The notes under the pieces were generated by a model. The model did no database searches. It was given only the letters and a program-made list of their open reading frames with translations, and had not been told where the DNA came from. From contig PLIC01000085.1 in the NCBI GenBank assembly GCA_003139995.1, forward strand, positions 3,739 to 67,738: a stretch of 64,000 bases of DNA, given 5' to 3'. This DNA is from Acidobacteriaceae bacterium (lineage in GTDB: Bacteria > Acidobacteriota > Terriglobia > Terriglobales > Acidobacteriaceae). Positions 21,911 through 63,997 of the stretch are shown in pieces. The first letter of the stretch is position 1. The number at the start of each line of letters is the position of its first letter. Position numbers and translations under genes: made by a program.

Positions 21911-21946
21911 CTGCAATCTCCTTGGGAACTCTAAACTTAAACGCGA

Positions 21947-22006: not shown

Positions 22007-22016
22007 CCTTCAAAGC

Positions 22017-23315
22017 TTAATGCGCTTCCGCCGCCCACTTCACATTCTTCAAGTCCACACCCTCTTTCGCCATTTCGTAGAGTGGCGACAATTCGCGCAG
22101 ACGCAACACCGTCTCGACCACGCGGTCGGCCACGTAATCGATCTCGGCCTCGGTGTTGAAGCGCCCGATGCCGAAGCGGATCGAGCTGTGCGCCAGATCG
22201 TCACCCGTGCCGAGCGCTTTCAGAACATAGGATGGCTCCAGTGTCGCCGAGGTGCATGCCGATCCGCTCGAAACCGCGATATCGTTGATGCCCATCAGCA
22301 GCGACTCGCCTTCCACGTAGGCAAAACTGATATTCAGATTGCCGGGCAGGCGATGCTCCACCGAGCCATTGATATAGACCTCGTCAAGGCGGCTCATGAT
22401 GCTGTCTTTCAGCCGGTCTCGCAAACCAGCGATTTTGCAGGATTCCTGCGGCATCTCTTCCTGCGCGATGGCGCAAGCCTTGCCCAGGCCGGCGATGCCG
22501 GGAACGTTGAGGGTTCCGGAACGCATGCCACGCTCGTGGCCGCCGCCGTCAATCTGCGCCACCAACTGCACTCGCGGATTCTTGCGGCGCACGTAAAGCG
22601 CGCCCGCGCCTTTGGGCCCGTACAGTTTGTGCGCGGTGATGGAGGCGACATCGATGTTCATCTTGTTTACGTCGATCGGAATTTTGCCGATTGCCTGCAC
22701 CGCATCGGAATGGAAGATCACGCCGCGTTCGCGGCACAGTTTGCCGATCTCCGCGATCGGTTGCAGCACGCCGATTTCGTTGTTGGCCGCCATGATCGTG
22801 ACCAGAATTGTCTTGTCGCCGATGGCGCGCTTCAGGTCGTCGAGATCAACCAACCCATCCTTCTGCACGGGCAGATAGGTCACGCGAAAGCCGAGCTTCT
22901 CAAGATGCTTGCAGGTGTCGAGCACCGCCTTGTGCTCGGTGGTCGCAGTGATGATGTGGTTGCCCTTCTCGCGGTACATCTCCGCCACGCCCTTGATGGC
23001 GAGGTTGTCGCTTTCGGTGGCGCCCGAGGTGAAGATGATTTCTTTCGAAGTGGCGCCGATCAGCCTTGCGATGCGCTCACGCGACAACTCGACCGCTTCT
23101 TCCGCCACCCATCCAAATGGGTGATTGCGGCTGGCCGCGTTGCCGAACTTTTCCATGAAGTAGGGCAGCATTTCGTCGAGAACCCGAGGATCCATCGGCG
23201 TGGTCGCGTGGTTATCCATGTAAATCGGCAGCTTGATCCCATTGGGAACAGCGCGTTGTTCATTTTTATGTTCATCGTGATTGGTTAGGGTCGCCTTGTT
23301 GCCATTCGTGCTCAT
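22017..23315 (-). CDS. iscS: Cysteine desulfurase IscS
   Basis: [15 protein letters not shown]...[17 protein letters not shown]...SSGSACTS and C-terminal ..WAAEAH. Confidence 0.92.
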
Positions 23316-23339
23316 GATTGCTCTTCTCCTTACGGGTCC

Positions 23340-23807
23340 TTACAAAATCTTTACTAACTCCGCCGGCTTCCTGGTCTCCAGTTTGTCGACCTGGATGACT
23401 TCCGGCTCTTCCTTCATTTGCGAAATCATGATGTTCTTCAGCACCTGCTCGATGCTTTCGTTCACTTTCCGCAGCGGCTCGCGAATCGTGCAGCGATTGC
23501 TCTGCCCGCATTCGCCGCGCACGGTCACGCACGACGTAATGAACAGCGGACCATCAATGGCCTTGATCACCTCGAACGCGGAAATCATCTTCGGATCGCG
23601 CGTCAGCGTGTAACCTCCGTTCATGCCATGCTGCGACCGTATCAAGCCGATCTTCGCCAGCCGTTGCAGGATCTTCGCCAGCGCTTCCTGCGGAATGCCG
23701 TAAGCCTCGGCCACATCCTTTGCGCTGCAGGCGCCCTGGTCGGCGTGCTCGGCCAGATGCTTCATGGCCATGAGCCCGTAGTCCGCTTTTTTGGTGAGTT
23801 TGAGCAT
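23340..23807 (-). CDS. iscR: Rrf2-family Fe-S transcriptional regulator IscR
   Basis: MLKLTKKADYGLMAMKHLA...AKDVAEAYGIPQEALAKILQRL, with three clustered Cys (C..C-x5-C region TSCVTVRGECGQSNRC). First gene of the operon. Confidence 0.85.
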   Translation of the reverse strand: MLKLTKKADYGLMAMKHLAEHADQGACSAKDVAEAYGIPQEALAKILQRLAKIGLIRSQHGMNGGYTLTRDPKMISAFEVIKAIDGPLFITSCVTVRGECGQSNRCTIREPLRKVNESIEQVLKNIMISQMKEEPEVIQVDKLETRKPAELVKIL

Positions 23808-49477: not shown

Positions 49478-50101
49478 CTACCTCGCGCGGCGAGTTGCAC
49501 GCGCCATCTCCCCCCGGAAGCTCAGGAACGCCTTCTGCCCGGCGAGTTTCGCCAGTTGTTCGCGCTCATTTTCCAGAGGCATGCCCGCACGCAGAAACTG
49601 TTTCCGAAGTTTTCCGATGTGCTCCACAAACGGTCCCCACTCCGGCGGGAATTGCCGCTCCAATTCCTTTCGCAGCCGTGCCGCCAAGGCAGGACTGTTT
49701 CCGCTTGTAGAGATCGCAATCTGCAGCGGCCCGCGACGCACCACGGCCGGATAAAAAAAGTCGCAGTGCTCGGGATCGTCCACTACATTGCAGAGCACGC
49801 GCCGGGCCCGGCAAGCGCGAAACACGGCGCCGTTGGATGCAGCGGAATCGGTGGCGGCGACCACCAGAAACGCGCCTCGCACATCGCGGGACAAAAATGC
49901 CCGGCTTCGCCATACGAGCTTGCCCGATCGCGCTTTCTCGCGAATCCAGGCGACGGCTTTCGGGGCGACGACAACGACCTCAGCCCCATGGCTCAGCAAG
50001 CCAGCCGCTTTCGCCGCCGCCACGCGCCCCGCGCCCACCACCAGGCATTTCCGGCCCTGCAGCCGGACCATGATGGGGAAAACGATGATAGGGAACGCCA
50101 T
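49478..50101 (-). CDS. sirC: Precorrin-2 dehydrogenase / sirohydrochlorin ferrochelatase (CysG N-terminal / SirC-Met8 type)
   Basis: FPIMVRLQGRKCLVVGAGRVAAAKAAGLLSHGAEVVVVAP...NVVDDPEHCDFFYPAVV. Divergent from dsrA. Confidence 0.8.
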   Translation of the reverse strand: MAFPIIVFPIMVRLQGRKCLVVGAGRVAAAKAAGLLSHGAEVVVVAPKAVAWIREKARSGKLVWRSRAFLSRDVRGAFLVVAATDSAASNGAVFRACRARRVLCNVVDDPEHCDFFYPAVVRRGPLQIAISTSGNSPALAARLRKELERQFPPEWGPFVEHIGKLRKQFLRAGMPLENEREQLAKLAGQKAFLSFRGEMARATRRAR

Positions 50102-50237
50102 GTAACCCCCGCATTTTCAATCGGGTCGGACCAGACCATGATACCCCAAACTGGGCACTCCGCACGCCATCTGCGGGGTCTCAGTTTTCATCCGCGGGTC
50201 ATTTTTCCGGCGATTCTTCGGCGCAGTCACCACGCCC

Positions 50238-50253
50238 TGTGATCGATGTCACA
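50238..50253. promoter_or_regulatory. Perfect CRP/FNR-family palindrome TGTGA-TCGATG-TCACA in the sirC/dsrA divergent region
   Basis: Read directly. It lies 116 nt upstream of the dsrA ATG. A -10-like TAGTAAT follows 19 nt downstream (50273-50279). Confidence 0.5.
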
Positions 50254-50368
50254 TACCGGCGACGGCTATTCCTAGTAATCTTATGGACAAGATGATGTTG
50301 TCCCCTCTTCGTCCCGTGGCCGCTTGCGACTCCAGGCCGATTCCCCCAAGAACCTAAGGAGATAGGTG

Positions 50369-51568
50369 ATGGCCAATGACAGCGGCGAGAAACCGGAAAC
50401 CAAGATGTTGGACGAACTGGAAAAAGGTCCATGGCCGAGCTTCGTGAAGGAGATCAAGTCGGCTGGCCAAACCAGCGCCAGCGCCCAGGATCTCCTTCGC
50501 CAGTTGGAGCTTTCCTACCAGGAGAAGAAAGGGCATTGGAAGCACGGCGGCTTAGTCGGCGTGCTCGGCTACGGCGGAGGCGTCATCGGGCGCTACAGCG
50601 ATGCCGGCGATCAGTTTCCCAAGGTCGCTCAGTTCCACACCCTACGCGTCAACCAGCCTGCGGGATGGTTCTACACCAGCGACGCGATTCGCACTCTCTG
50701 CGACATTTGGGAGCGCCACGGCTCCGGCCTCACTAACATGCACGGGTCCACCGGCGACCTCATTCTGCTGGGCACCGGCACGGCTGAACTGGAGCCCACA
50801 TTCCAAGAGCTGGCGCAGGCTGGGTTCGATCTGGGCGGCTCCGGATCCGCGTTTCGCACTCCTTCTTGCTGCGTCGGCATGGCCCGCTGCGAATGGGCGT
50901 GTTATGACGCGATGAAACTGTGTTACGACCTGACCATGGCGTACCAGGACGAAATGCATCGTCCACCCTTCCCTTACAAGTTCAAAGTCAAGTGCGCCGC
51001 CTGCCCGAACGATTGCGTGGCGGCCATTGCCCGCGCCGATCTTTCTATCATCGGCACCTGGAAGGACGAAATTCAGGTGGACGAGAGCGCCGTGAACGAG
51101 TACGCGTCCGCTGGCCTCAACCTCCAGAAGGACGTCTGCGATCTCTGCCCCAGCAAGTGCATGGCATGGGATGGCCACAAGCTCAGCATTGAAAACCACG
51201 AATGCGTGCGCTGCATGCACTGCATCAACGTCATGCCCAAAGCGCTGCGGCCCGGCAAAGAGCGCGGAGCGGTCATCATGATCGGAGGCAAGGCGCCCAT
51301 CATGCAAGGCGCTCTGCTTTCTTCCGTCCTCGTTCCTTTCGTGCCTGCGGAAGAACTCATGGACACTTTGAAGGAGTTGATCCGCCGCATCTGGGATTTC
51401 TGGGACGAATACGGCAACAATCGGGAGCGGGTTGGTGAACTGATCCAGCGCGTGGGGCTGCCCGTGTTCCTCGATGGTATTGGTCTCGACCCCGTTCCGG
51501 AAATGGTCTCCGCGCCCCGCGACAATCCTTACATTTACTTTCAGGTTGCGAAGGACGGTGAGAAATGA
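50369..51568 (+). CDS. dsrA: Dissimilatory sulfite reductase alpha subunit
   Basis: [19 protein letters not shown]-terminus. Sirohaem-[4Fe-4S] Cys cluster ([12 protein letters not shown] ... CAACPNDC) and ferredoxin insert ([12 protein letters not shown]). AAGGAG lies 7 nt before the ATG. Confidence 0.9.
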
Positions 51569-52647
51569 GCGCCACACCCCAACCTCGGCTCACCGACATC
51601 GGGCCGCCGCATTACGAAAAATATCTGCATCCTTTGATCAAGAAGAACTACGGCCAGTGGAAGTACCACGAGAATCTGGCCCCCGGAGTCTATTGCCATG
51701 TTGCGGAATCGGGTGACCGCATCTACACGGTGCGCGCGGGCACGCCGCGTCTGCTAAGTATCCACACGCTGCGGAAGTTTGCTGACTTGGCCGACAAATA
51801 TTCTGGCGGCTATCTACGCTTCACCAGCCGGAACAATCTCGAGTTTCTGCTCGACGATCCGGCCCGGATCGAGCCGCTGAAGCGGGAACTGATCGCCCTG
51901 GGATATCCGGTGGGCGGCACTAATAACGCCATCAGCAACATCGTCCATACCCAGGGATGGATCCATTGCCATTCCTCGGCAACCGACGCTTCGGGACTGG
52001 TCAAGTGCGTGATGGACGCTGTTTACGAACGCTTCACGCACGAGGACCTTCCGGCAAAATTGCGGATCGCGGTCGCCTGCTGCCTGAATATGTGTGGCGC
52101 GGTGCATTGTTCCGACATCGCCATCCTCGGCGTTCACCGCCTCCCCCCGAAAATCCAGCATGGCACGCTGCCCAAAGTATGCGAGGTGCCAACGCTGATC
52201 GCCGCCTGCCCGACCGGGGCGATTCGTCCGGCGATCGTGGACGGCAAGAATTCGGTCGCAGTGGTGGAGCAGCAGTGCATGTATTGCGGCAATTGCTACA
52301 CCGTATGCCCCGCCATGCCCATGAACGATGCGGAGAATGACGGTTTATCCATCTGGGTGGGCGGCAAGGTGAGCAATGCGCGGAGCGTGCCAAAGTTTTC
52401 CAAGCTGGCGATCCCGTTCCTCCCCAACCATCCTCCGCGCTGGCCCGAGGTGGTTGAGGCCGTGGTGAAGATTGTGAACGTTTATGCGAAACACGCGCGC
52501 AAATACGAACGGGTGGGCGAGTGGATCGAGCGCATCGGTTGGCCGCGCTTTTTCCAACTGACCGGGTTCGAGTTCACGCGTTATCACATTGACGACTTCA
52601 AACATGCGGCGCTGACCTACGCGCGGTCGGCGCACGTTCGCTATTGA
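51565..52647 (+). CDS. dsrB: Dissimilatory sulfite reductase beta subunit
   Basis: [27 protein letters not shown]...[10 protein letters not shown]...[16 protein letters not shown]...[16 protein letters not shown] overlap with dsrA. Confidence 0.9.
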
Positions 52648-52686
52648 AGTGCGTCTTCGGACCTCCCCCTACGAGGAAGCTGGTTG

Positions 52687-54348
52687 ATGGGGCTGTTCAA
52701 GGAAGTCGAGAAGCCGGTGATTCGAAGCGTGGCGGCGGCTGCCAGTGAGATCAGCCCGCTGCGTCCTCGCTTCGCGCCCAAAGCGCCGCCGTGCGCCTCG
52801 GGCTGCCCCAACGGCACCGAAATTCGCGAGCTGCTAGTGATCGTCGCGCAAGCCAAAGACTACGGCTTGACGCATGAACAAGCTTTCGACCGCGTTTGGA
52901 AAAGAATCGTGGAGCGCAACCCATTCCCCGCAGTCACGGGCCGAATCTGTCCGCACCCTTGCGAAACTGCGTGTAACCGCAGCGCCAAGGATGGAGCGGT
53001 GGCGTTCAATGCGATCGAACGCATGATCGGAGATTTTGGGATTGCCAACAAGCTGAGGCTCTCGCCGCTGACGACTCAGCCCCGCGCAGAAAAAGTTGCG
53101 GTCATTGGCGCGGGCCCGGCGGGGTTGTCCTGCGCCTATCAACTGGTTCGGCGAGGATACGCGGTCGCTGTTTTCGAAGCCTTGAACGAGCCGGGAGGTA
53201 TGTTGCGTTACGGTATTCCGGGATTCCGCTTGCCGCGTGAAGTTCTCGACGCGGAGATCGGCCGCATTCTCGATCTCGGAGTCGAGCTGCAGTGCAATTG
53301 CGCCGTGGGCAAGGATATTTCCCTGGAGCAACTCCGCCAGGAATATGCAGCCGTATTCGCCGGCATTGGCGCACAAAAAGGGATCAAGTTGAATTTGGCG
53401 GGCGAGGATGCGCCGAACGTGATCAGCGGGATCGAATTCCTCAATCTGGTCAACCGCGGAGAAAAAATCGGCGTCGGAAGCAAAGTGATCGTGATCGGCG
53501 GAGGCGACACCGCCATTGACGCCGCCCGCGTCAGCAAGCGGCTCGGCGCCGAGGTCACCGTCCTCTATCGCCGCACGCGCGCCGAAATGCCGGCCATCAA
53601 GTCCGAGATCGAAGGCGCGCTCGAAGAAAGTGTGAAGATCGAATACTTGGCCGCGCCGCTCGAAATCCTGCGGCAGAACAGACGCGCCGTAGGCATGCGC
53701 TCGATTCGCATGCAGCTTGGCGAACCGGATTCCTCGGGCCGTCCGCGCCCCGTGCCTCAGCCCGGCAGCGAATTTGAAATGGAGGCGTCCTGCGTCATCG
53801 CGGCGATCAGCCAGGCGCCCGATTTCCAGGGTCTGGAGACTCTGCCCAACGGCGACGGCTGGATCAAAATTGACGATTGGGGCGGGACCGCCGTTGACGG
53901 AATCTTCGCCGGCGGCGACGGCGCTGGACTCGGTATCGCCGCTGTTGCCATTGCCCAGGGCCGGTTGGCGGCCCAGGCCATCGACGCGCGTTTTCAGGGA
54001 CGCAAGTTGGAAAAGCCGCCCGCGTTGCCTGCCATCCCGATCGAGAAGCTGAGGCTTGACTGGTATCCGGCGGCGCCGCGGCGCGAAGCGCAGCGGGTTT
54101 CGGTCACGGAGCGCGAACTCGGCACCGAGGTCGCGTTCGGTTTAACTGAAGCTGAAGTGCTCGAAGAGGCCAAGCGCTGCATGTCTTGCGGCATGTGCAT
54201 GGATTGTGAAGCCTGCTGGATGTACTGCAGCAACAACTGTTTTGTCAGGCTGCCGAAAGGCGAACATTGCAAGATCAGGCTGGAAGTCTGCAACGGGTGC
54301 AAGAAGTGCGCCGACGCATGTCCGAGCGGATATATCGAACTGAGTTGA
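52687..54348 (+). CDS. dsrL: DsrL-like NAD(P)H oxidoreductase (GltD-like flavoprotein with C-terminal 2x[4Fe-4S] ferredoxin domain)
   Basis: GRICPHPCETACNR; two dinucleotide folds (VAVIGAGPAGLSCAY, VIVIGGGDTAIDAA); C-terminal CMSCGMCMDCEACWMYC...CNGCKKCADACP. It sits between dsrB and dsrC. Confidence 0.8.
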   Translation: MGLFKEVEKPVIRSVAAAASEISPLRPRFAPKAPPCASGCPNGTEIRELLVIVAQAKDYGLTHEQAFDRVWKRIVERNPFPAVTGRICPHPCETACNRSAKDGAVAFNAIERMIGDFGIANKLRLSPLTTQPRAEKVAVIGAGPAGLSCAYQLVRRGYAVAVFEALNEPGGMLRYGIPGFRLPREVLDAEIGRILDLGVELQCNCAVGKDISLEQLRQEYAAVFAGIGAQKGIKLNLAGEDAPNVISGIEFLNLVNRGEKIGVGSKVIVIGGGDTAIDAARVSKRLGAEVTVLYRRTRAEMPAIKSEIEGALEESVKIEYLAAPLEILRQNRRAVGMRSIRMQLGEPDSSGRPRPVPQPGSEFEMEASCVIAAISQAPDFQGLETLPNGDGWIKIDDWGGTAVDGIFAGGDGAGLGIAAVAIAQGRLAAQAIDARFQGRKLEKPPALPAIPIEKLRLDWYPAAPRREAQRVSVTERELGTEVAFGLTEAEVLEEAKRCMSCGMCMDCEACWMYCSNNCFVRLPKGEHCKIRLEVCNGCKKCADACPSGYIELS

Positions 54349-54366
54349 TAACTAAGGAGAGTAACT

Positions 54367-54684
54367 GTGCCGCTATTCGAAGTCGAGGGAAGAAGTTACG
54401 AAGTGGATGAAGACGGCTTCTTGCAGGAGCCGGAACGCTGGAACCGGGAGGTGGCCAAGGACTTCGCTGCTACTGAGGCCATCGCCGATCTGACCGAGGA
54501 ACACTGGAAGATCATTCACTACATCCGCAATTACTACCTGGAGTTCGGGATCGCGCCCATGATTCGCAAGCTCTGCAAGGAAACCGGGCACAAACTGAAC
54601 GAGATCTACAAGCTGTTCCCATCCGGGCCGGCGAAGGGCGCGTGCAAGCTGGCGGGGCTGCCGAAGCCCACAGGCTGCGTGTAG
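54367..54684 (+). CDS. dsrC: DsrC (TusE/DsrC/DsvC family) with both conserved C-terminal cysteines
   Basis: MPLFEVEGRSYEVDEDGFL...EHWKIIHYIRNYY and C-terminal ..GACKLAGLPKPTGCV. GTG start after AAGGAG. Confidence 0.9.
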   Translation: MPLFEVEGRSYEVDEDGFLQEPERWNREVAKDFAATEAIADLTEEHWKIIHYIRNYYLEFGIAPMIRKLCKETGHKLNEIYKLFPSGPAKGACKLAGLPKPTGCV

Positions 54685-54691
54685 AAATCAA

Positions 54692-55165
54692 ATGGACGCG
54701 AACGAGGCCATCCTCGAACAGTGGGTCGTGCGGACGGCGGAATCCTACCCGCATCACGCGGCGGCTCTTCTGAGCAAAGAGCGGGATCCCTTTCGCAATC
54801 CGGTTGGCGATACGCTGCGCCAGAGCCTGGCGCTGCTGCTGCGCGAGTTATTCGCCGAGATGGATGCAACGGCAATCGATTCCGCCCTCGACCCCATCAT
54901 CCGGCTCCAAGCGATTCAAGGGTTCTCTTCCGACGACGCCGTGCGATTCGTATCTCTGTTGAAACCCATTCTCCGTGAACTGGCGCCGGAACGAAACTCT
55001 GCAGTCCTTGATCGTCGGATCGATGATGACAGGATCAATCGGCTCGCGGTGATGGCTGCAGACAAGTGCACACAATGCCGCGAGCAACTGGCTCGAATCC
55101 GGGCGAACGAAGTTCAGCGCGCGAACCATGTGCAACAACGTATCCGCGCGAGGCGGCCCGCATGA
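54692..55165 (+). CDS. dsrT: DsrT-like protein (RsbRD N-terminal-type domain)
   Basis: Located directly upstream of dsrMKJOP, as in sulfate reducers and Chlorobi. The pattern ILEQWVVRTAESYP...DPFRNPVGDTLRQSL is what I recall for this family. Confidence 0.55.
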   Translation: MDANEAILEQWVVRTAESYPHHAAALLSKERDPFRNPVGDTLRQSLALLLRELFAEMDATAIDSALDPIIRLQAIQGFSSDDAVRFVSLLKPILRELAPERNSAVLDRRIDDDRINRLAVMAADKCTQCREQLARIRANEVQRANHVQQRIRARRPA

Positions 55166-56175
55166 AAGCCCTCTCTCCGCTGCTGGCCGTTCTCGCGATT
55201 GTTGGGTTCGCCGTCGTAGGCGGGCACACGCATGCTGGCCTTGTTTTTCTGGCTGTGTTCGTTCCCTATGCGGCCTTCGCGGTTTTCCTAGTTGGCTTCT
55301 GTTACCGTGTGGCGCGCTGGGCGTGGATCCCTGTACCGTTCCGCATTCCCACCACTTGCGGCCAGCAAAAGTCGCTGCCCTGGATCAAACCTGCATCGCT
55401 GGACAACCCCAGCACCGGCTGGGGCGCATTCCGCCGTATGGCGCTGGAAATCCTTCTGTTCCGTTCCCTGTTCCGCAACAATCGCGCGCGGCTGCACGAT
55501 CGGCGGCTTGTACTGGGCGAAGACAGATATCTATGGCTGGGCGCTCTTGCGTTTCATTGGTCGTTGCTGGTGATTCTGCTTCGGCACCTGCGTCTGTTTG
55601 TCCAGCCCGTTCCAGTTTTCGTAAGTGTGCTCTCGCGACTGGACGGCGCTTTTCAAGTGGGAACTCCTGCACTTTATATCTCTGACGTGGTCATTCTGGG
55701 CACGCTGGTGTACCTGACCGCACGGCGATTTCGCAACCCGCTGGCTCGCTACCTATCAATGCCGATCGATTACCTGGCCTTGTTTCTTCTGCTGGGAATC
55801 GTGACTTCCGGCCTGCTCATGCGCTTCGTAGTCCGAGTAGACGTGGCTGCGATCAAGCAGTTTGCGCTCGGATTGGCCGTCTTCCGCCCGGTAGTTACAA
55901 GCGCCATAACTCCGATATTTCTCGTCCACTTACTTTTGGTCAGCGCCCTGGCTGCATATTTCCCGTTCAGCAAGCTCATGCACATGGGCGGTGTCTTTCT
56001 CAGCCCCACGCGTAATCTGGCCAACAACAATCGCAGCAAGCGCCACGTCAACCCCTGGAATCATCCAGTGAAAACCCACTCCTATGCGGAGTGGGAGGAC
56101 GAGTTCCGAGACAAACTGAAAACCGCGAACCTTCCGCTTGAGGCTGAGGATGCCCGACAAATTACTGGCCATTGA
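55162..56175 (+). CDS. dsrM: DsrM (NarI-like dihaem b membrane subunit)
   Basis: Polytopic membrane protein with conserved His in TM helices. ATGA overlap with dsrT. Its position is typical for dsrM. Confidence 0.8.
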   Translation: MKALSPLLAVLAIVGFAVVGGHTHAGLVFLAVFVPYAAFAVFLVGFCYRVARWAWIPVPFRIPTTCGQQKSLPWIKPASLDNPSTGWGAFRRMALEILLFRSLFRNNRARLHDRRLVLGEDRYLWLGALAFHWSLLVILLRHLRLFVQPVPVFVSVLSRLDGAFQVGTPALYISDVVILGTLVYLTARRFRNPLARYLSMPIDYLALFLLLGIVTSGLLMRFVVRVDVAAIKQFALGLAVFRPVVTSAITPIFLVHLLLVSALAAYFPFSKLMHMGGVFLSPTRNLANNNRSKRHVNPWNHPVKTHSYAEWEDEFRDKLKTANLPLEAEDARQITGH

Positions 56176-57748
56176 ACAGAAACGTCCCGAAGGCGATTGG
56201 CGCGATGCTAAGGTCGAGTTTCGCAAAGGGACGATCTGTTACAGCGCGGCGCCGAAAAACATCACCTATCTCAGTCTGCCCAACCCCCGCGAGTGGCAGC
56301 CTTTCGACGCGGACTGGAAACTTCCGCCCAACTGGAAAGAAATCATTCTCAAAGGCATGAAAGAGCGATTGCGGAAGTACCGCTCTTTTCGCCTATTCAT
56401 GGAAATCTGCGTACGCTGCGGCGCCTGCGCCGACAAGTGTCATTTCTATGTCGGCTCCGGCGATCCCAAGAACATGCCAGTGCTGCGCGCCGAGTTGATG
56501 CGCTCGGTTTATCGCCGCTATTTCACCCTCACGGGGCGGCTTTTTAGGGCGCTCGTGGGCGCGCGCGAGCTGACTGAAGACGTCATCAAGGAATGGTTCT
56601 ACTACTTTTATCAGTGCACCGAGTGCCGGCGCTGTTCGGTTTTTTGTCCTTATGGGATCGACACGGCCGAGATCACTATGATGGGCCGCGAGTTACTCGA
56701 CCTGATCGGCTGCAACATCAATTGGGTCATGGAGCCTGCCGCAAACTGTTTCCGCACCGGCAATCATCTTGGAGTGCAGCCGCACGCTTTTCAGGACAGC
56801 ATTCAATTCGCCGCCGATGAAGCAAAGGAAATCACGGGCCTGCCCATCGAAGTTCCCATCAACCGCAAAGGCGCGGAGATTCTTTTCGTCATGCCCTCGG
56901 CCGATTATTTTGGCACCCCGCATTACTACACACTGCTCGGCTATCTGATGCTGTTTCACGAAATCGGGCTTGACTACACAGTTAGTGCCTTTGCTTCGGA
57001 GGGCGGCAACTTCGGCCTCTTTTCATCGCACGAACTAATGAAGCGGCTCAATGCCAAGATCTACGAAGAAGCGAAGCGGCTGCGCGTCAAATGGATTCTG
57101 GGCGGCGAGTGCGGCCACATGTGGCGCGTGTTCCATCAGTATATGGACACGATGAACGGGCCGGCCGATTTTCTGGAGCCGCCGGTTTCGCCCATTACCG
57201 GGACGCATTTCGAGAACGCCCGCTCCACGCGCGCCGTCCACATTTGCGAGTTCACCGCCGACCTGATTCATCACGGCAAACTTCGGCTCGACCCTCGCCG
57301 CAACGATCGTTGGAACGTTACTTACCACGACTCCTGTAATCCTTCGCGCGCCATGGGGTTGCTGGAAGAGCCGCGCTACATCCTGAAAAACGCTTGCCGG
57401 AATTTCCACGAGATGCCGGAGAACACGATCCGCGAACAAACCTTCTGCTGCGGCAGCGGCGCCGGACTCGGCACGGATGAGAACCTGGAGATGCGCCTGC
57501 GCGGCGGCTTTCCGCGCGCCAACGCCGTCAAGCACGTAAGGGAAAAACATGGCGTGAACTTGCTGGCTTGCATTTGCGCCATCGACAAGGCAACGCTGCC
57601 CACGCTGATGGAGTACTGGGTCCCTGGCGTCGAGGTCGCCGGCGTGCACGAGTTACTGGGGAATGCGCTGGTGATGACCGGAGAAAAAGAACGAACCACT
57701 GACTTGCGCGGCGAACCACTGGTACGGGAGGAGGCTACGCGTGAGTGA
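56150..57748 (+). CDS. dsrK: DsrK (HdrD-like Fe-S/CCG-domain catalytic subunit)
   Basis: CVRCGACADKCH, CTECRRCSVFCPYGID and the CCG motif region FCCGSGAG. Confidence 0.85.
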   Translation: MPDKLLAIEQKRPEGDWRDAKVEFRKGTICYSAAPKNITYLSLPNPREWQPFDADWKLPPNWKEIILKGMKERLRKYRSFRLFMEICVRCGACADKCHFYVGSGDPKNMPVLRAELMRSVYRRYFTLTGRLFRALVGARELTEDVIKEWFYYFYQCTECRRCSVFCPYGIDTAEITMMGRELLDLIGCNINWVMEPAANCFRTGNHLGVQPHAFQDSIQFAADEAKEITGLPIEVPINRKGAEILFVMPSADYFGTPHYYTLLGYLMLFHEIGLDYTVSAFASEGGNFGLFSSHELMKRLNAKIYEEAKRLRVKWILGGECGHMWRVFHQYMDTMNGPADFLEPPVSPITGTHFENARSTRAVHICEFTADLIHHGKLRLDPRRNDRWNVTYHDSCNPSRAMGLLEEPRYILKNACRNFHEMPENTIREQTFCCGSGAGLGTDENLEMRLRGGFPRANAVKHVREKHGVNLLACICAIDKATLPTLMEYWVPGVEVAGVHELLGNALVMTGEKERTTDLRGEPLVREEATRE

Positions 57749-58145
57749 TCGTCCACTTATTCTCGCGGGCCTGACTCTTTTCGTCGGACTGGTAACGACG
57801 CCGATCTGGCACGGCGCTCTCGATAGGAAGGCGGCCTTGACCGCTCCGCCGATCCAGCTTCCTGCGCAGGAAAAGCAGTGCGTAGCACCCGCGAGTTACA
57901 TGCGCAGTTCGCACATGCAGTTGCTGGAACATTGGAGAGATGAGGCGGCGCGCGATGGGCGGAGGCAGTTCGTCGCATTCAACGGGAAGATTTACGACAA
58001 GAATCCCACCCGCACCTGCGTCACGCAATGCCACACCGACCGCAAGGAATTTTGCGAACGGTGCCATGACTATGCCGGTGTTTCCGATCCAGATTGTTGG
58101 AATTGCCACAACGATTCCCAGCGAACTTCGAGGAGTGCGCCATGA
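57741..58145 (+). CDS. dsrJ: DsrJ (trihaem cytochrome c, membrane anchored)
   Basis: N-terminal TM helix and three haem motifs: CVTQCH (CX3CH), CERCH, CWNCH. GTG start overlaps dsrK by 8 nt. Confidence 0.8.
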   Translation: MSDRPLILAGLTLFVGLVTTPIWHGALDRKAALTAPPIQLPAQEKQCVAPASYMRSSHMQLLEHWRDEAARDGRRQFVAFNGKIYDKNPTRTCVTQCHTDRKEFCERCHDYAGVSDPDCWNCHNDSQRTSRSAP

Positions 58146-58921
58146 AGATTACGCGAAAAGATTTTCTTCGGATTTCGGGCCTGGGCTTGCTGGCTGTGGC
58201 AGGAAGGAAAGCTGTCCGCGCAGTGGCCGAACGAACGTCCGAGCGAGCGTCCGAGCAAACGTCCGCGCCGTTCGCGAAACAGGTCCGCTGGGGCATGGCG
58301 ATTGATCTGCAGAAATGCCGTCAAAAAGACGGCTGCGACCGCTGCATCAAGGCGTGCCACTCGACGCACAACGTGCCGCAATTCTCCGACCGCGCGCACG
58401 AGGTCAAGTGGATATGGAAGGAGCCGTTCAAGAATGTATTTCCCGCCGCGCAGACCGGCTACACACGCGAGTTTTTCGGAAACCTTCCCGTGTTGCTGGT
58501 GTGCAACCACTGCGACGATCCTCCCTGCCAGGACGTTTGCCCGGTCAAGGCAACCTGGAAACGAGAGGACGGCGTGGTCACCATCGACTTTCATCGCTGC
58601 ATCGGCTGCCGCTATTGCATGGCTGCCTGCCCGTATGGTGCGCGCAGCTTTAACTGGCTGGATCCCCGGCCAGCCATCGCAACTGTGAACCTGGATTTCC
58701 CGACCCGCACCAAAGGTGTGGTGGAGAAGTGCAATTTCTGCGAAGAACGGCTGGCGAAAGGGCTGGGACCGGCTTGCGCCGAGAGCTGCGAGGAGAAAGC
58801 CATCGTGTTCGGCGATCTCGAAAAGCCAGACTCCGAGGTGCGCCGACTGCTGCGATCGCGCTTTGCGGTGCAGCGCCAACCGGAATTGGGCACTGGCCCT
58901 GCTGTGTATTACATCGTCTGA
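58142..58921 (+). CDS. dsrO: DsrO (periplasmic 4Fe-4S ferredoxin-type subunit, Tat-like signal)
   Basis: MKITRKDFLRISGLGLLAVAG, then CIGCRYCMAACPYGA and CNFCEERL..G..PACAESC. ATGA overlap with dsrJ. Confidence 0.85.
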   Translation: MKITRKDFLRISGLGLLAVAGRKAVRAVAERTSERASEQTSAPFAKQVRWGMAIDLQKCRQKDGCDRCIKACHSTHNVPQFSDRAHEVKWIWKEPFKNVFPAAQTGYTREFFGNLPVLLVCNHCDDPPCQDVCPVKATWKREDGVVTIDFHRCIGCRYCMAACPYGARSFNWLDPRPAIATVNLDFPTRTKGVVEKCNFCEERLAKGLGPACAESCEEKAIVFGDLEKPDSEVRRLLRSRFAVQRQPELGTGPAVYYIV

Positions 58922-58929
58922 GTGTGCTT

Positions 58930-60087
58930 ATGTTCATGTTTGAAAAAGCGCTCACGGGAGGCCGCAAATACTGGCTCTGGATAACCTCACTCTTCTTGTT
59001 AGTTCTGGCAGGTTCTCTTTGTTATGTCTTACAACTGACGCACGGGCTGGCCGTCACCGGACTCAGCCGCGATGTAAGTTGGGGCCTCTACATTGCGCAA
59101 TTCACCTTCTTTGTGGGTGTCGCCGCTTCCGCGGTCATGGTAGTTCTGCCCTACTATCTGCACGATTACCAACAATTTGGCCGCATCACCATCCTTGGCG
59201 AACTTCTGGCGGTCACGGCGGTTACGATGTGCATTCTTTTCATCTTCGTCGACTTGGGCCAGCCTACGCGGATTGTCAACATCGTGCTTCATCCCCAGCC
59301 GAAGTCGGTGATGTTTTGGGACATGATTGCGCTCGGCGGTTATCTACTGATGAACGCGGCGATCGCCGTGGTCACACTGACCGCGCAACGCGAACAAGTA
59401 CCGGCTCCCGGCTGGATCAAGCCCGTGATTATCCTCTCGATTCCATGGGCAATCGGCATTCATACGGTCACCGCATTTCTCTATAGCGGATTGCCCGGCC
59501 GATCTTACTGGCTGACGGCGATTCTGGCGCCGCGTTTCCTGGCTTCGGCTTTTGCTTCGGGGCCGGCCTTGTTGATCCTTCTGTGTCTGGCCTTGCGGAA
59601 GTTGTCCGGCTTTGATGCGGGGCGGGAAGCCATCCAGAAGCTCGCGGTCATCGTGACCTACGCCCTCGCCATCAATATGTTTCTCATCCTGGCAGAGGTC
59701 TTTACCGCTTTCTACAGCGAGATTCCGGCGCACGAAGAGCACTTCGAGTATCTCTTCATCGGCCTCAACGGCGATCGGCACCTGGTGCTCTGGATGTGGC
59801 TCTCGACGCTGCTTTCCGGGGTTGCATTGGCATTGCTGCTGGTTCCAAAGTGGCGAAACAACATCCGTCTGCTGGTGGTGGCATGCGTGTGTGTTTTCGT
59901 TTCGATCTGGCTGGACAAGGGACTCGGACTGATTGTTGGTGGCATGGCGCCTTCACCACTCGGAGCGGTCACGCGGTATGTTCCCACGCTACCCGAATCG
60001 GCTATCGTTCTCGGGATTTGGGCCAGCGGCGCCTTGATGATCACGGTTTTCTACAAGATCACGCTCTCGGTTTGGGAGGATAACTAA
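58930..60087 (+). CDS. dsrP: DsrP (NrfD/PsrC-type integral membrane quinone-interacting subunit)
   Basis: 385-aa polytopic membrane protein following dsrO. ATG 58930 (MFMFEKALTGGRKYWLW). Confidence 0.8.
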   Translation: MFMFEKALTGGRKYWLWITSLFLLVLAGSLCYVLQLTHGLAVTGLSRDVSWGLYIAQFTFFVGVAASAVMVVLPYYLHDYQQFGRITILGELLAVTAVTMCILFIFVDLGQPTRIVNIVLHPQPKSVMFWDMIALGGYLLMNAAIAVVTLTAQREQVPAPGWIKPVIILSIPWAIGIHTVTAFLYSGLPGRSYWLTAILAPRFLASAFASGPALLILLCLALRKLSGFDAGREAIQKLAVIVTYALAINMFLILAEVFTAFYSEIPAHEEHFEYLFIGLNGDRHLVLWMWLSTLLSGVALALLLVPKWRNNIRLLVVACVCVFVSIWLDKGLGLIVGGMAPSPLGAVTRYVPTLPESAIVLGIWASGALMITVFYKITLSVWEDN

Positions 60088-60175
60088 CAACAGAACTAAT
60101 AAGGATGACTCGTTCTATGGTTTGCGATTGAGGCACGACGATGATTTTGAAAGAGAGAATTGAAAGAGAGCATTC

Positions 60176-61072
60176 ATGACGAACATTGGCAAAGTATATT
60201 TGGTGGGCGCAGGACCGGGACATCCTGATCTTCTTACGATCCGGGCGGCCGAAATTCTCAAGACCGCTGAAGTGATCGTGTACGACCGGCTGATCCAGGA
60301 TGAGGTCCTGGCGCTGGCCAAGCCTTCTGCCGAAAAGATCTTCATGGGCAAGCCGTTGGGCAGGCATGCTTCGCGACAGAACGAGATCCACGATCTGCTG
60401 GTCCGCAAGGCCCGCGAAGGCAGAATGGTGGTGCGCCTCAAGGGCGGCGATCCGTTTTTGTTCGGTCGCGGCGGCGAGGAAGCCGAGTATCTTGCGGAGC
60501 ATGGGGTTACCTTCGAAGTAGTTCCGGGAGTTTCTTCCTGCCTGTCCGCGCCGCTGAGCGCCGGAATCGCAGTTACTCACCGCGACCGGGCCTCGTCCGT
60601 CGCTATTGTTACCGGCCATCAGGCGGCGGAGCATGAGGATCGGGTGGATTGGCAAGCGCTGAGCAAAGTCGACACTCTGGTCGTTCTCATGGGCATCCAC
60701 AATATCGACCACATCACCAGGAAGTTGATGGCGGCCGGCCTCGCTCCCGATACTCCAGCCGCGATCGTTCAGATGGCCTTCTGGGAAAGTGAGCGAGTTA
60801 TCGCTTCAACGCTGGGCACGATTACAGAAGACGCTCGTCGCGCAGCTATCGAGCCTCCGGCGACTCTCGTGATTGGGGAGGCGGTGCGCCTGCGCGAGAA
60901 ATTGAAACATCATCAACAACACATCGGACAGCACTCCGGCCGCGATCCCTTGATTCACGTTGTTCCTATCCCTGACCGGTCCTCGGGCGACACGCTAAGT
61001 CTAGACACGCTAAGTCTGGAAGAGGAGAGTTGCGTGGTGCCTGCATCGTGCGAGAAAGAGGTTCTCCAATGA
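60176..61072 (+). CDS. cobA: Uroporphyrinogen-III C-methyltransferase (SUMT) with ~45-aa C-terminal extension
   Basis: VYLVGAGPGHPDLLTIRAAEILKTAEVIVYDRL...VVRLKGGDPFLFGRGGEE...VPGVSS. The tail contains the direct repeat DTLSLDTLSL. Confidence 0.85.
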   Translation: MTNIGKVYLVGAGPGHPDLLTIRAAEILKTAEVIVYDRLIQDEVLALAKPSAEKIFMGKPLGRHASRQNEIHDLLVRKAREGRMVVRLKGGDPFLFGRGGEEAEYLAEHGVTFEVVPGVSSCLSAPLSAGIAVTHRDRASSVAIVTGHQAAEHEDRVDWQALSKVDTLVVLMGIHNIDHITRKLMAAGLAPDTPAAIVQMAFWESERVIASTLGTITEDARRAAIEPPATLVIGEAVRLREKLKHHQQHIGQHSGRDPLIHVVPIPDRSSGDTLSLDTLSLEEESCVVPASCEKEVLQ

Positions 61073-61323
61073 CGGATACGACATCGGTCCCTATCGAGAT
61101 TCTGGCGGAAGAAATGTACCAGCTGGTTGCGGACTGCGCCGGGAAGAAGAACTTGAAACCCGGCGATCTGACTAAAGAGATGATCGCCAAACACGGCCCA
61201 GCTTGCAGCAAAGACGACTGCAAGAAGGCCCTGCGAATCTTGATCGACTCAAGCCGCTGCGTCTACAGCTATCTCGGAGGCACTTACATTCAACTTCCGC
61301 CTAAGCCTGGCAGTGAAATATGA
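61069..61323 (+). CDS. dsrD: DsrD-like small winged-helix protein
   Basis: 84 aa. KKNLKPGDLTKEMI...DCKKALRILIDSSRCVYSYLGGTYIQLPP parallels the ..EVKKILTALVNDEVLEYWSSGSTTMYGLK region I recall from Desulfovibrio DsrD. ATGA overlaps on both sides. Confidence 0.5.
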   Translation: MTDTTSVPIEILAEEMYQLVADCAGKKNLKPGDLTKEMIAKHGPACSKDDCKKALRILIDSSRCVYSYLGGTYIQLPPKPGSEI

Positions 61324-62744
61324 CGGATTCTCGGCCCATGCCGCGCCTGCTGATTGGCGGTATGTCCGGCGGTTCGGGCAAGACACTGGTTTCGCTCGCG
61401 CTGCTGCTGGCCCTGCGCCGGGCCGGATTCCAGGTCCGCGCATTCAAGAAGGGTCCCGACTATATCGACGCTGCTTGGCTAAGTTGGGCAGCATCTTACC
61501 CCGCTCGCAATCTCGACACTTACTTGATGGGCCGAGACACCGTTCGCTCGTCGTTTGTGCGTGCTGGGATCACGGATGGCGTCAACCTCATCGAAGGCAA
61601 TCGGGGAATATTCGACGGATTCGACGCCGCTGGCACGCACAGTAGTGCCGCCCTCAGCCACTGCCTCGCCGCGTCAGTGGTGCTCGTGATCAACGTCGCC
61701 AAAGTCACGCGCACCGCAGCGGCTTTTGTCGCAGGATGCCGGGCACTTGATCGGGAGCTTCCGATTCGCGGCATCATTCTGAACAACGTGAATGGCCAGC
61801 GGCATGAGGAGGTCTTGCGTGCGGCGATTGAGTCTGCATGTGCGATCCCTATAGTTGGCACAATTCGTAAGGCCGCGGTCAACCCGCTGCCCGAGCGCTA
61901 TCTCGGATTGGTTCCTCCGCAAGAACACGCCGGAACGGCGCAAATCCAGGAGAATTTATTGAAACTGGCGGACGGGTTCGATTTAGACGCCATCGTCTCA
62001 ATCGCGCGGAGTGCGCCTTCGCTGGAGACCGATCCCACGGAGGTTGCGGTATCAGCCGTGAAGGACATCAAGGTTGGCTATCTGCGCGACTCGGCGTTTA
62101 GTTTCTATTACCCGGAAAATTTGGAGCAGTTGGAGCATGGGGGTGCCGAACCCATCCCAGTTTCCGCGCTTCAGAGCAGCGCTCTGCCAGAAGGGCTATG
62201 CGCGTTATACATCGGAGGCGGCTTTCCAGAAAAACACGCGGAAGTGCTGTCGTCGAACCGGAGTTTCCTGGAGTCGGTCCGGGAAGCAGCGCTCGGAGGT
62301 CTGCCAATTTACGCCGAATGCGGAGGTCTAATGCTGCTGGCCCAAACGCTGCGCTGGGAGGGCAGAACGTATCCGATGGCCGGAGTTTTCCCATTCGATG
62401 TGGAAGGCTTCAACACGCCACAAGGCCACGGTTACAGCGAGTTGCGCGTCGACCGGCCGAACCCGTTTTTTCCTGCTGGGCTCGTTCTTCGCGGCCATGA
62501 GTTCCATTACTCACGCATTTTGCTTGGGGATGAACCGGTTCCGACCGCTTGCGCAGTAATTCGCGGCGTGGGATGCTTTCAGAAACGCGACCTTGTTATC
62601 ACGAGAAATGTAATGGCAGGTTATACCCACTTACATGCCCTGGCCACTCCCGAATGGGCGAAAGGCTTTCTGGATGCGGCGCGCCGCTTCGAGCCTCGTG
62701 CCGCGCACCGAAACATTTCACATACTGTTGAAGCGATGGGCTAA
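61320..62744 (+). CDS. dsrN: DsrN (cobyrinic acid a,c-diamide synthase family; sirohaem amidase)
   Basis: PRLLIGGMSGGSGKTLVSLALLLALRRAGFQVRAFKKGPDYID, plus a C-terminal glutamine amidotransferase part (YAECGGLMLL...GHEFHYS). Confidence 0.8.
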   Translation: MTDSRPMPRLLIGGMSGGSGKTLVSLALLLALRRAGFQVRAFKKGPDYIDAAWLSWAASYPARNLDTYLMGRDTVRSSFVRAGITDGVNLIEGNRGIFDGFDAAGTHSSAALSHCLAASVVLVINVAKVTRTAAAFVAGCRALDRELPIRGIILNNVNGQRHEEVLRAAIESACAIPIVGTIRKAAVNPLPERYLGLVPPQEHAGTAQIQENLLKLADGFDLDAIVSIARSAPSLETDPTEVAVSAVKDIKVGYLRDSAFSFYYPENLEQLEHGGAEPIPVSALQSSALPEGLCALYIGGGFPEKHAEVLSSNRSFLESVREAALGGLPIYAECGGLMLLAQTLRWEGRTYPMAGVFPFDVEGFNTPQGHGYSELRVDRPNPFFPAGLVLRGHEFHYSRILLGDEPVPTACAVIRGVGCFQKRDLVITRNVMAGYTHLHALATPEWAKGFLDAARRFEPRAAHRNISHTVEAMG

Positions 62745-62758: not shown

Positions 62759-63997
62759 CTACGCCGTCATCCCGATGGGTTGTCGAGTCGTAGTCAGCAC
62801 TAACTCGCGCTCCGGCTTCCGAACGCGCTCGCGCGCCCAGTTGGAGATTTCGGAGACGGCATGGATCGCGGCGGCCACTTCCGCCTCGGTATTGAATGCG
62901 CCCACCGCGAAACGCACGCCGCCGTGTGTTTCCACAGTGCCCAATTGCGTGTGCACGAGCGGCGCGCAATGCAGCCCGGTGCGGGTCGCGATGTTATGGT
63001 CCACGTCAAGCATGATTCCGACATCGCCCGGATCGGCGCCTTCTATGTTCATCAAGACAGTCGAGAGGTGGTTCTCGAGTTGGTCGCAACAGTACAAGCG
63101 CACGCCATCGATCTTGCGCAAGCCTTCCACCAACTGTCTGGCGAGCTTCATCTCGTGGGCGTACACCTTTTCGATTCCGTTTTCGTCAAGCCAGTCCTGG
63201 CCCGCCCAAAGGGCCGCCACTCCCACCATGTTCGGAGTGCCGAACTCGAGGCGCCACGGATATTCCTCCAGATGATAGGGCTCGACCGAGCGCACTCCGG
63301 TGCCGCCGCTGCGTACCTGTGCGATTTCAACATGCTTACGGATACAAAGACCGCCGATGCCCATGCTGCCCATCAGCGCCTTGTGCCCTGTGAACGCGAC
63401 CACATCAATATTCATTTCTTTCATGTTGATCGGGATCACGCCTGCGGTTTGCGCCGTGTCTACGAGGAAGATTATGCCGTGCTCCCGGCAAAGACGCCCC
63501 ATTTCGCGAAGGGGCTGCACGGTGCCAATGACGTTTGAGCCGTGATTAACAATCAGTACTTTCGTGTTCGGACGAATGGCCCGCTTGACGTCGCCGGGTT
63601 CGATGAATCCCGAGGAGTTGAAAGGGAGATAGGTCGCCTCCGCTCCACAATCGCGAACCAGGTGGTTGACCGGCCGGATCACGGAGTTATGTTCCAGGTT
63701 GGTCGTGATCACGTGGTCGCCCTTGCCGATCAGCCCCGGAATCACCAGGTTCAGCGCATCCGTGACGTTGTAGCTGAAGACGAGCCGCTCCGGCGTATCT
63801 TCGTCGCCGCCAAAAAACTTGGTCAAACGCTTGCGCAGGTTCGTCAGCAAGGAACCCGCTTCAATCGCCAGGTCGTAACCGCTTCGGCCGGGGTTGACGC
63901 CATGCGTGCGGTAGAACTGATCCATGAACTTGTAAACACTCTCCGGCTTGGGCCAAACGGTCGCCGCATTATCAAAATAGATCAAGCGTTTTTCCAT
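62759..63997 (-). CDS. Class-V aminotransferase-fold cysteine desulfurase-like enzyme
   Basis: IYFDNAATVWP...FTGHKALMGSMGIGGLCI (PLP Lys context)...RTGLHCAP. Convergent with dsrN, 14 nt apart. Confidence 0.75.
   Translation of the reverse strand: MEKRLIYFDNAATVWPKPESVYKFMDQFYRTHGVNPGRSGYDLAIEAGSLLTNLRKRLTKFFGGDEDTPERLVFSYNVTDALNLVIPGLIGKGDHVITTNLEHNSVIRPVNHLVRDCGAEATYLPFNSSGFIEPGDVKRAIRPNTKVLIVNHGSNVIGTVQPLREMGRLCREHGIIFLVDTAQTAGVIPINMKEMNIDVVAFTGHKALMGSMGIGGLCIRKHVEIAQVRSGGTGVRSVEPYHLEEYPWRLEFGTPNMVGVAALWAGQDWLDENGIEKVYAHEMKLARQLVEGLRKIDGVRLYCCDQLENHLSTVLMNIEGADPGDVGIMLDVDHNIATRTGLHCAPLVHTQLGTVETHGGVRFAVGAFNTEAEVAAAIHAVSEISNWARERVRKPERELVLTTTRQPIGMTA

Follow-up and report, generated by a model that had tools for sequence, protein, structure and literature searches.

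In the assembly GCA_003139995.1 of an Acidobacteriaceae bacterium, a stretch of 64,000 nucleotides from contig PLIC01000085.1 (hereafter the window, to whose positions all coordinates refer) carries a cluster of dissimilatory sulfite reductase (dsr) genes at positions 49478 to 62744. The list of open reading frames (ORFs) and direct reading of the sequence place thirteen co-directional genes on the plus strand, from 50366/50369 to 62744 (12,379 bp), in the order dsrA-B-L-C-T-M-K-J-O-P, cobA/dsrWa, dsrD and dsrN. ATGA overlaps of start and stop codons join dsrA to dsrB (51565), dsrT to dsrM (55162), dsrJ to dsrO (58142), cobA to an ORF of 84 codons (61069) and this ORF to dsrN (61320), while dsrM and dsrK share 26 nt, dsrK and dsrJ share 8 nt (GTGAGTGA), and the other intergenic spacers measure 39, 18, 7, 8 and 88 bp. 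Upstream of dsrA and separated from it by 267 bp, a sirC-like gene is transcribed in the opposite direction, and at the far end a cysteine desulfurase gene runs towards dsrN and lies 14 bp from the stop codon of the latter. This is the layout that an original prediction, made from the sequence alone, had described, and its thirteen genes over 12.4 kb, its five ATGA and two longer overlaps and both neighboring genes were all found in place. Gene callers applied to independent public assemblies arrived at identical gene calls. As start and stop codons overlap, translational coupling is tight, indicating that the thirteen genes probably form a single operon. Every component had also been held to be recognizable, and the Pfam and NCBIfam assignments, together with sequence motifs, support this for all genes except the presumed dsrD, whose product of 84 amino acids (aa) is missed by the standard profiles. 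The features of the locus are as follows.

49478-50101, minus strand: dsrV/sirC-like gene for a precorrin-2 dehydrogenase and sirohydrochlorin ferrochelatase of the CysG N-terminal type; TIGR01470 cysG_Nterm, 164 bits against a cut-off of 62; PF13241, PF14824.
50238-50253, no strand: CRP/FNR-type palindrome TGTGATCGATGTCACA, a predicted operator between dsrV and dsrA, 116-131 nt upstream of the dsrA ATG.
50369-51568, plus strand: dsrA, dissimilatory sulfite reductase alpha, 399 aa from the ATG, with a GTG at 50366; TIGR02064, 574 bits against 393.
51565-52647, plus strand: dsrB, dissimilatory sulfite reductase beta, 360 aa; TIGR02066, 513 bits against 341.5.
52687-54348, plus strand: dsrL, iron-sulfur flavoprotein NAD(P)H:acceptor oxidoreductase, putatively of type 2, 553 aa; NF009410, 573 bits against 516.
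54367-54684, plus strand: dsrC, sulfur-carrier co-substrate of DsrAB, 105 aa; PF04358, 1e-39; TIGR03342.
54692-55165, plus strand: dsrT, RsbRD_N domain, 157 aa; PF14361, 9e-15.
55162-56175, plus strand: dsrM, membrane dihaem cytochrome b (NarI-like); NF038037, 461 bits against 300.
56150-57748, plus strand: dsrK, HdrD-like catalytic iron-sulfur subunit; NF045796, 730 bits against 400; FCCGSG.
57741-58145, plus strand: dsrJ, membrane-anchored periplasmic trihaem cytochrome c; NF038038, 134 bits against 100.
58142-58921, plus strand: dsrO, periplasmic ferredoxin-like iron-sulfur subunit; NF045797, 298 bits against 200.
58930-60087, plus strand: dsrP, NrfD-type quinone-interacting membrane subunit, 385 aa; NF045798, 452 bits against 350; PF03916.
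60176-61072, plus strand: dsrWa/cobA, uroporphyrinogen-III C-methyltransferase (SUMT); TIGR01469, 298 bits against 185.
61069-61323, plus strand: divergent dsrD, winged-helix protein of 84 aa and predicted allosteric activator of DsrAB; fold model, synteny and weak profile-profile similarity.
61320-62744, plus strand: dsrN, CobB-type a,c-diamide synthase homolog and predicted sirohaem amidase; NF002204, 388 bits against 254; CbiA, GATase_3.
62759-63997, minus strand: cysteine desulfurase family gene, convergent neighbor; TIGR01977, 412 bits against 377.

DsrA, DsrB, DsrM, DsrK, DsrJ, DsrO and DsrP all score well above their NCBIfam equivalog cut-offs. DsrA is 62% identical to the protein from Archaeoglobus fulgidus and 59% to the one from Desulfovibrio vulgaris, and DsrB reaches 56-58% with the same two organisms (56% for D. 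vulgaris). In alignments with the solved structures from D. vulgaris (2v4j) and A. fulgidus (3mm5), residues C168, C174, C212, C216, C260, C279, C282 and C285 of DsrA and C135, C172, C173, C177, C206, C215, C238, C241, C244 and C248 of DsrB are invariant. We take these cysteines to be cluster and sirohaem ligands, following the assignment in the published structures, and the sets for the sirohaem-coupled [4Fe-4S] and the ferredoxin-domain clusters are complete in both subunits, as had been predicted. An assimilatory or AsrC-type (anaerobic small) sulfite reductase, the case that was to speak against the prediction, was ruled out, with the respective models far below their cut-offs (sulfite_red_C, only 41-47 bits against 324).

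In order to place the enzyme with respect to the oxidative type, a DsrA tree was calculated by neighbor-joining and rooted on DsrB. Its oxidative references are 16 viral rDsrA sequences bearing the rDSR1F primer motif, found by running the rDSR1Fa primer (Loy et al. 2009) as a DNA pattern against IMG/VR; this primer perfectly matches Allochromatium, Alkalilimnicola, Ruthia and others (Loy et al. 2009), and phage-borne rdsrA are described as known auxiliary genes for sulfur oxidation (PMC8190135). Viral sequences were used because the PDB holds no structure of an oxidative-type DsrAB and because our GTDB scan, consisting of the best 80 matches, gave only close relatives (67-85% DsrB identity) and neither oxidative nor archaeal outgroups. 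A scan of IMG/VR with the reductive DsrA alignment had recovered no oxidative references, since the peptide patterns derived from it are specific to the reductive type. The DsrA of the window is 66-84% identical to acidobacterial and other relatives and 59-62% to the reductive references, but only 41-49% to viral rDsrA. In the tree it groups with its acidobacterial relatives, D. vulgaris and A. fulgidus, while the 16 viral sequences form a separate clade with 100% bootstrap support. The original prediction had asked for concatenated DsrAB to be placed among reductive, oxidative and archaeal clades; what stands of this is that DsrA falls in with the reductive enzymes, in a neighbor-joining tree of DsrA alone, with viral sequences in place of cellular oxidative or archaeal-type references and 55% support for the reductive clade. 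DsrA carries GHWKHGG and DsrB CMYCGNCYT, the motifs of the reductive references; the rDSR primers aim at a KGYWKG site, and GHWKHGG and CGNCYT are found instead of it. Every member of the Acidobacteriota known to date to bear dsrAB has the reductive type of the enzyme (Dyksma & Pester 2023, PMC10564751). Taken together, the assignment of this DsrAB as a dissimilatory enzyme of predicted reductive type is supported.

DsrL combines Fer4_20 and Pyr_redox_2 domains with the cysteines of a C-terminal two-cluster ferredoxin, as evidenced by Pfam and by reading of the sequence, and carries a YRR motif (LYRRTRAEMP, in ...EVTVLYRRTRAEMPA...). This motif marks the NADP(H)-specific DsrL-2 and is absent from the DsrL-1 of sulfur oxidizers, where DsrL-1A in addition shows an insertion of about 32 aa in the substrate domain and a linker that is longer by about 30 aa (Loeffler et al. 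2020). Acidobacterial DsrL is known to be shorter than the Allochromatium vinosum protein (Hausmann et al. 2018, PMC6018796), and the 553 aa found here are consistent, by length only, with the lack of both insertion and linker. By its YRR motif, the protein may thus be assigned to the NADP(H)-dependent type 2. Note that GenBank/PGAP names it 'NAD(P)-binding protein'. The C-terminus of DsrC (...CKLAGLPKPTGCV) contains both conserved cysteines, the penultimate residue and another one 11 residues upstream, so that this earlier claim could be read directly from the sequence. The following gene, dsrT, lies between dsrC and dsrM in nearly all relatives.

The five subunits of DsrMKJOP are encoded adjacent to each other. 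DsrK contains the CCG motif (FCCGSG), although the Pfam model CCG, at 20.4 bits, stays marginally below its cut-off of 20.6, and DsrJ has three haem sites, CVTQCH (CX3CH), CERCH and CWNCH, as well as the conserved cysteine in KQCVAP. With their equivalog scores, this agrees with the cofactors that had been proposed for the complex. At the first haem site of DsrJ, residues 93-98 approximately, the window shares CX3CH with 18 of 53 relatives; 33 of the 53 have CX2CH. No solved structure of DsrJ or DsrMKJOP was matched by sequence. The cluster had further been credited with a sirohaem branch of its own, and cobA (TIGR01469), sirC (TIGR01470) and dsrN (NF002204) do belong to the expected tetrapyrrole families.

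The assignment of the 84-aa protein required evidence of a different kind. The ORF has no Pfam or NCBIfam match even at E<=10, searches of the PDB by sequence and by family profile do not retrieve the DsrD structures 1ucr and 1wq2, and the protein is labeled 'hypothetical protein' by GenBank/PGAP (ABSG40_03820). Its family comprises 154 representatives at the 50% identity level; among 46 of these that were scanned individually, seven matched PF08679 DsrD (best E-value 5e-6), and generic winged-helix families were matched by six each of the same 46. An AlphaFold2 model (pLDDT, the predicted local distance difference test, of 81.7) shows three helices (H-H-H) followed by a beta-hairpin, a winged helix, and numerous winged-helix proteins came up in a Foldseek search with it, DsrD 1wq2_A ranking 35th (E=0.034, 23% identity); the fold as such is not specific to DsrD. 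Alignment by hhalign to canonical DsrD from Desulfovibrionaceae put 59 columns in register, with P=0.0013 and a probability of 18.5%. The protein reads YSYLGGTY where canonical DsrD has YWSSGSTT, and it has conserved cysteines where canonical DsrD has none.

As fold and sequence alone could not establish a DsrD, synteny was needed for the call. A homolog of the protein is present in 59 of the 80 species-level GTDB loci, and in 53 of the 59 it directly follows dsrB, as in canonical dsrABD. In the remaining six it adjoins dsrN, as in the window, with cobA adjacent or close by, and three of these (L012, L016, L017) have the order cobA-dsrD-dsrN after dsrP that is found here. Pairs of dsrD and dsrN, as well as conserved hydrophobic residues, have been reported before, and the genes were named dsrD (Hausmann et al. 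2018, PMC6018796). We therefore accept the 84-aa protein as a putative divergent DsrD, the positional evidence being decisive, and the distribution shows that this lineage moved dsrD from its place behind dsrB into a sirohaem sub-cluster cobA-dsrD-dsrN. By analogy, the protein is predicted to be an allosteric activator of DsrAB; binding and stimulation of DsrAB by DsrD have been shown only for the proteins from A. fulgidus and D. vulgaris (Ferreira 2022). Note that PF08679 and NCBIfam miss acidobacterial DsrD, and that this can bias calls of reductive versus oxidative metabolism that are made from marker genes.

With these components, we consider it likely that the dsr cluster of this peat-soil Terriglobales bacterium is a reductive, energy-conserving module for sulfite respiration. 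The full Dsr set occurs in Acidobacteriota, including dsrL of type 2 and dsrD, which indicates the reductive direction; a DsrL-2C in the vicinity of reductive DsrAB has been proposed as a reductive indicator as well. In the acidobacterial metagenome-assembled genome (MAG) CO124, dsr genes are transcribed almost only under anoxic, sulfate-reducing conditions (Dyksma & Pester 2023, PMC10564751). The reductive direction is preferred because DsrL-2 with its YRR motif, DsrD and reductive DsrAB occur in combination, and because of this anoxic transcription in CO124. The direction, which had been called unresolved, is thus less open than before, yet it remains unproven for the present organism.

From the characterized families present we infer the following sequence of steps. 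Electrons from NADPH would pass via DsrL-2 to DsrAB, which would be activated allosterically by the divergent DsrD and would reduce sulfite at its sirohaem-[4Fe-4S] center on DsrC, to yield the DsrC trisulfide. DsrMKJOP would then reduce the trisulfide to sulfide and DsrC with electrons from the menaquinol pool, DsrK being the predicted catalytic subunit, DsrM and DsrP the quinone-interacting ones and DsrJ and DsrO a periplasmic module. DsrV/SirC and DsrWa/CobA would produce sirohaem from uroporphyrinogen III, and DsrN would amidate it. Direction in vivo, electron donors, regulator and sulfite source are likewise inferred. Sulfite could originate from sulfate only if the genome has sat, aprAB and qmo in another place; failing this, the supply would be external sulfite, thiosulfate or organosulfonates.

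Several observations weigh against this interpretation. The reductive DsrA clade holds only 55% bootstrap support under rooting on the DsrB paralog, and the oxidative-type references of that tree are viral rdsrA only. The DsrD call is one of weak sequence similarity, with no Pfam match and an hhalign probability of 18.5%. According to Pfam annotation, the genes called in the window and in the 10 kb beyond it (about 74 kb in total) include no sat, aprAB or qmoABC, leaving sulfate respiration itself unproven for the organism; the original prediction had noted their absence from the window, and this holds for the adjoining 10 kb as well. DsrL-2 also occurs in sulfur oxidizers, and direction is not decidable from sequence alone (Loeffler et al. 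2020). Finally, in a bioreactor, dsrAB was hardly or not at all transcribed in acidobacterial MAGs that have dsr genes but lack sat and apr (PMC10564751).

Some of these points lend themselves to other explanations. The cluster might run in reverse or in both directions, with sulfide or stored sulfur converted to sulfite via DsrC, DsrMKJOP and DsrAB and with DsrL-2 reducing NADP+, either coupled to oxygen respiration or as part of a sulfur disproportionation. DsrL was first known from sulfur oxidizers and DsrL-2 is also found with oxidative rDsrAB (Loeffler et al. 2020), the alternative was explicitly proposed for peat Acidobacteria (Hausmann et al. 2018, PMC6018796), Desulfurivibrio and cable bacteria use a reductive-type DsrAB for oxidation or disproportionation, and these Acidobacteria possess aerobic respiratory chains (PMC10564751). 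We nevertheless regard reverse operation, in either form, as unlikely, given that DsrA is of reductive type, that a DsrD-like gene is present, which oxidizers with oxidative-type rDsrAB do not have, that dsrEFH, sqr and sox are missing from the Pfam annotations of the genes called in the same 74 kb, and that the dsr genes of CO124 were essentially silent under oxic conditions (PMC10564751). Somewhat less probable still is a role in sulfite detoxification, or as a rarely expressed and largely dormant trait of an aerobic or fermentative polysaccharide degrader. The scant or absent dsrAB transcription of the dsr-only MAGs (PMC10564751) would fit here, as would the missing sat, apr and qmo genes and the heterotroph functions in the flanks (TonB receptor, S53 peptidase, GH94, MFS transporter). 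Against this, thirteen genes that are intact, coupled and identical across many independent assemblies argue for purifying selection, the full DsrMKJOP and dedicated sirohaem genes would be costly for detoxification alone, and acidobacterial dsr genes are expressed and upregulated under anoxia in peat (Hausmann et al. 2018, PMC6018796).

The original prediction had spoken of an island, and a further explanation would be a recently transferred genomic island, or a chimera of assembly or binning, that does not belong to the acidobacterial chromosome. Related DsrAB are indeed scattered over Polyangia, Pirellulales, Ignavibacteria, Gemmatimonadota and Zixibacteria in the GTDB matches, and the tested flanks, the S53 peptidase and a 487-aa ORF, have no match in relatives from other species. 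The GC content, however, is 0.586 within the cluster and 0.586 outside, and at 0.966 its tetranucleotide correlation is no different from that of control segments of the window (0.94-0.97), so that the tetranucleotide check that had been suggested gave no indication of a chimera. The common neighborhood of CRTAC1/UnbV, NadA, the 487-aa ORF and the S53 peptidase recurs identically in five independent assemblies, including contigs of 430 kb and 518 kb, and the called genes beside the cluster gave no sign of an integrase, a tRNA or a repeat boundary. Because composition is uniform and identical neighborhoods occur in independent assemblies, a foreign island or chimera is rejected as highly improbable; the cluster is native-looking chromosomal DNA, and the term island, as far as it implied foreign DNA, did not hold up. 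The acidobacterial host, in turn, was corroborated. A 'Terriglobales bacterium' MAG (GCA_049510585.1) encodes identical versions of DsrA, DsrB, DsrL, DsrC and the 84-aa protein, a 'Candidatus Sulfotelmatobacter sp.' protein falls into the 90% cluster of DsrB, and an Rfam Acido-Lenti-1 RNA at 726-771 on the plus strand (57 bits against a gathering score of 37) is consistent with such a host. In a public collection, 202 blocks list exactly this DsrB sequence.

Among the closest known systems, the peat MAGs SbA1-7 (Candidatus Sulfotelmatobacter, Sulfotelmatomonas and Sulfopaludibacter; Hausmann et al. 2018, PMC6018796) have a gene inventory equal to that of the window, with dsrAB, a dsrL-dsrC duo downstream of dsrAB, dsrT, dsrMKJOP, dsrD-dsrN, dsrV and dsrWa. 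There is no substantive difference, and the window represents another species or strain. The precedent cited in the original prediction did report this set of genes, among them dsrV, dsrWa and the dsrD-dsrN pairs, and the architecture is one that has been known for this lineage since 2018 and no new kind of system; its later interpretation is found in Loeffler 2020, Ferreira 2022, Diao 2023 and Dyksma & Pester 2023. Among the peat MAGs, SbA1, 4, 5 and 6 are of a sulfite-only type, and SbA2, 3 and 7 of a full sulfate-reducing type (Hausmann et al. 2018, PMC6018796). CO124, whose host is a facultatively aerobic, polysaccharide-degrading acidobacterium, shares reductive-type DsrAB, DsrL of type 2, DsrD, DsrC and DsrMKJOP with the window, but differs in having sat, aprAB and qmoABC and in the transcript evidence for reductive use (PMC10564751).

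With D. vulgaris Hildenborough the window has in common, besides 59% identity in DsrA and 56% in DsrB, the cofactor cysteines, the C-terminal arm of DsrC and the five DsrMKJOP subunits. The dsr genes of D. vulgaris are dispersed over several loci. The ferredoxin domain of its DsrA contains an additional insertion, unlike that of the window, and its DsrD, with YWSSGSTT, is matched by PF08679, whereas the protein of the window, with YSYLGGTY, has no Pfam match and adjoins dsrN rather than dsrB. Canonical lineages of sulfate reducers overwhelmingly have no dsrL, according to the literature. The dsrABEFHCMKLJOPNRS operon of A. vinosum resembles the present one in being a single long operon with dsrAB, dsrC, dsrMKJOP, dsrL and dsrN, but the window has no dsrEFH, dsrR or dsrS and does have a DsrD-like gene. 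DsrL-1A of A. vinosum is longer and prefers NAD, in contrast to the YRR-bearing protein of 553 aa described here, and oxidative-type rDsrA, at 41-49% identity, is remote from the window DsrA on the reductive side of the tree. We also considered the oxidative rDsr system of sulfur oxidizers as a classification for the cluster and rejected it, finding a reductive DsrA, a DsrL with YRR motif, a DsrD-like gene and no DsrE-family gene in the 74 kb.

In peatlands, Dsr-bearing Acidobacteriota are believed to power a hidden sulfur cycle, one in competition with methanogenesis, and correct recognition of their dsr clusters matters for the reading of wetland metagenomes. In this context the window provides a clean and contiguous reference copy of the Terriglobales-type cluster. 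New and testable are only two items, the annotation gap for acidobacterial DsrD and a candidate CRP/FNR operator that bears on how the operon is turned on under anoxia.

The latter, TGTGATCGATGTCACA at 50238-50253, is the only perfect match to a CRP/FNR-type palindrome in the 64-kb window. Of 69 relatives, six have GTGA-N6-TCAC at a distance of 100-206 nt ahead of dsrA, against an expectation of 0.55, and the six loci (L010, L014, L016, L017, L040 and L047) are the closest relatives. An alignment of the dsrA upstream regions from 10 loci revealed no extended conservation beyond the short palindrome, and no gene for a regulator of the CRP/FNR family is present among the called genes of the window. 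The box is a candidate operator, through which a redox- or effector-sensing regulator may control the genes. In Desulfovibrio, predicted sites of HcpR, a member of the CRP/FNR family, precede sat and apsAB (Rodionov et al. 2004, PMC545781). The similarity lies in a TGTGA-N6-TCACA motif about 100-200 nt upstream of an operon for dissimilatory sulfur reduction; the difference is that dsrAB is outside the predicted HcpR regulon there (PMC545781), while here the predicted box precedes dsrA. It is conceivable, but we think it improbable, that the box would mark a dedicated redox- or effector-sensing switch by which these facultatively aerobic Terriglobales turn on a bidirectional DsrABL-2/DsrD module, in which the cysteine-containing, non-canonical DsrD sets the direction. 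Such a switch would allow NADPH-driven sulfite reduction under anoxic conditions, and sulfur oxidation with reduction of NADP+ at oxic-anoxic interfaces. Consensus scans of 49.3-64 kb for promoters (three sites, 4.0 expected) and for terminators (21 sites, 16.4 expected) stayed at chance level.

The further surroundings of the cluster, in the window and the 10 kb beyond it, comprise genes for RNase R, MurJ, an RND efflux pump, a TonB-dependent receptor, a GH94 protein and an MFS transporter, as well as an isc operon. A fragment of IstB (IS21) with 55 aa, about 7 kb beyond the cysteine desulfurase gene (csd; L153, 2964-3131), is the sole trace of a mobile element among the annotated genes nearby. 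As for the cysteine desulfurase gene itself, the loci compared from other species mostly end before, or right at, the gene that follows dsrN. In the contigs of 430 kb and 518 kb (L004 and L005, locus at about 8804-10004), dsrA is split into 274 aa and 135 aa with the rest of the operon identical, most likely an assembly frameshift rather than a pseudogene. DsrAB with 66-72% identity to those of the window and the same dsrD, dsrL and dsrN neighbors were found in L048, L052, L055, L058, L064, L069, L075 and L082-L084. These loci are labeled as Polyangia, Pseudomonadota, Acidithiobacillales, Pirellulales, Ignavibacteria, Zixibacteria and Gemmatimonadota and are interleaved with acidobacterial sequences in the tree. 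The spread over several phyla reflects either lateral transfer or mis-binning, and an older lateral transfer of this DsrAB clade is suggested. The isc operon, at about 17019-23807 on the minus strand and 26 kb upstream of the dsr genes, is complete, with IscR (Rrf2), IscS, IscU, IscA, HscB, HscA, Fdx and IscX.

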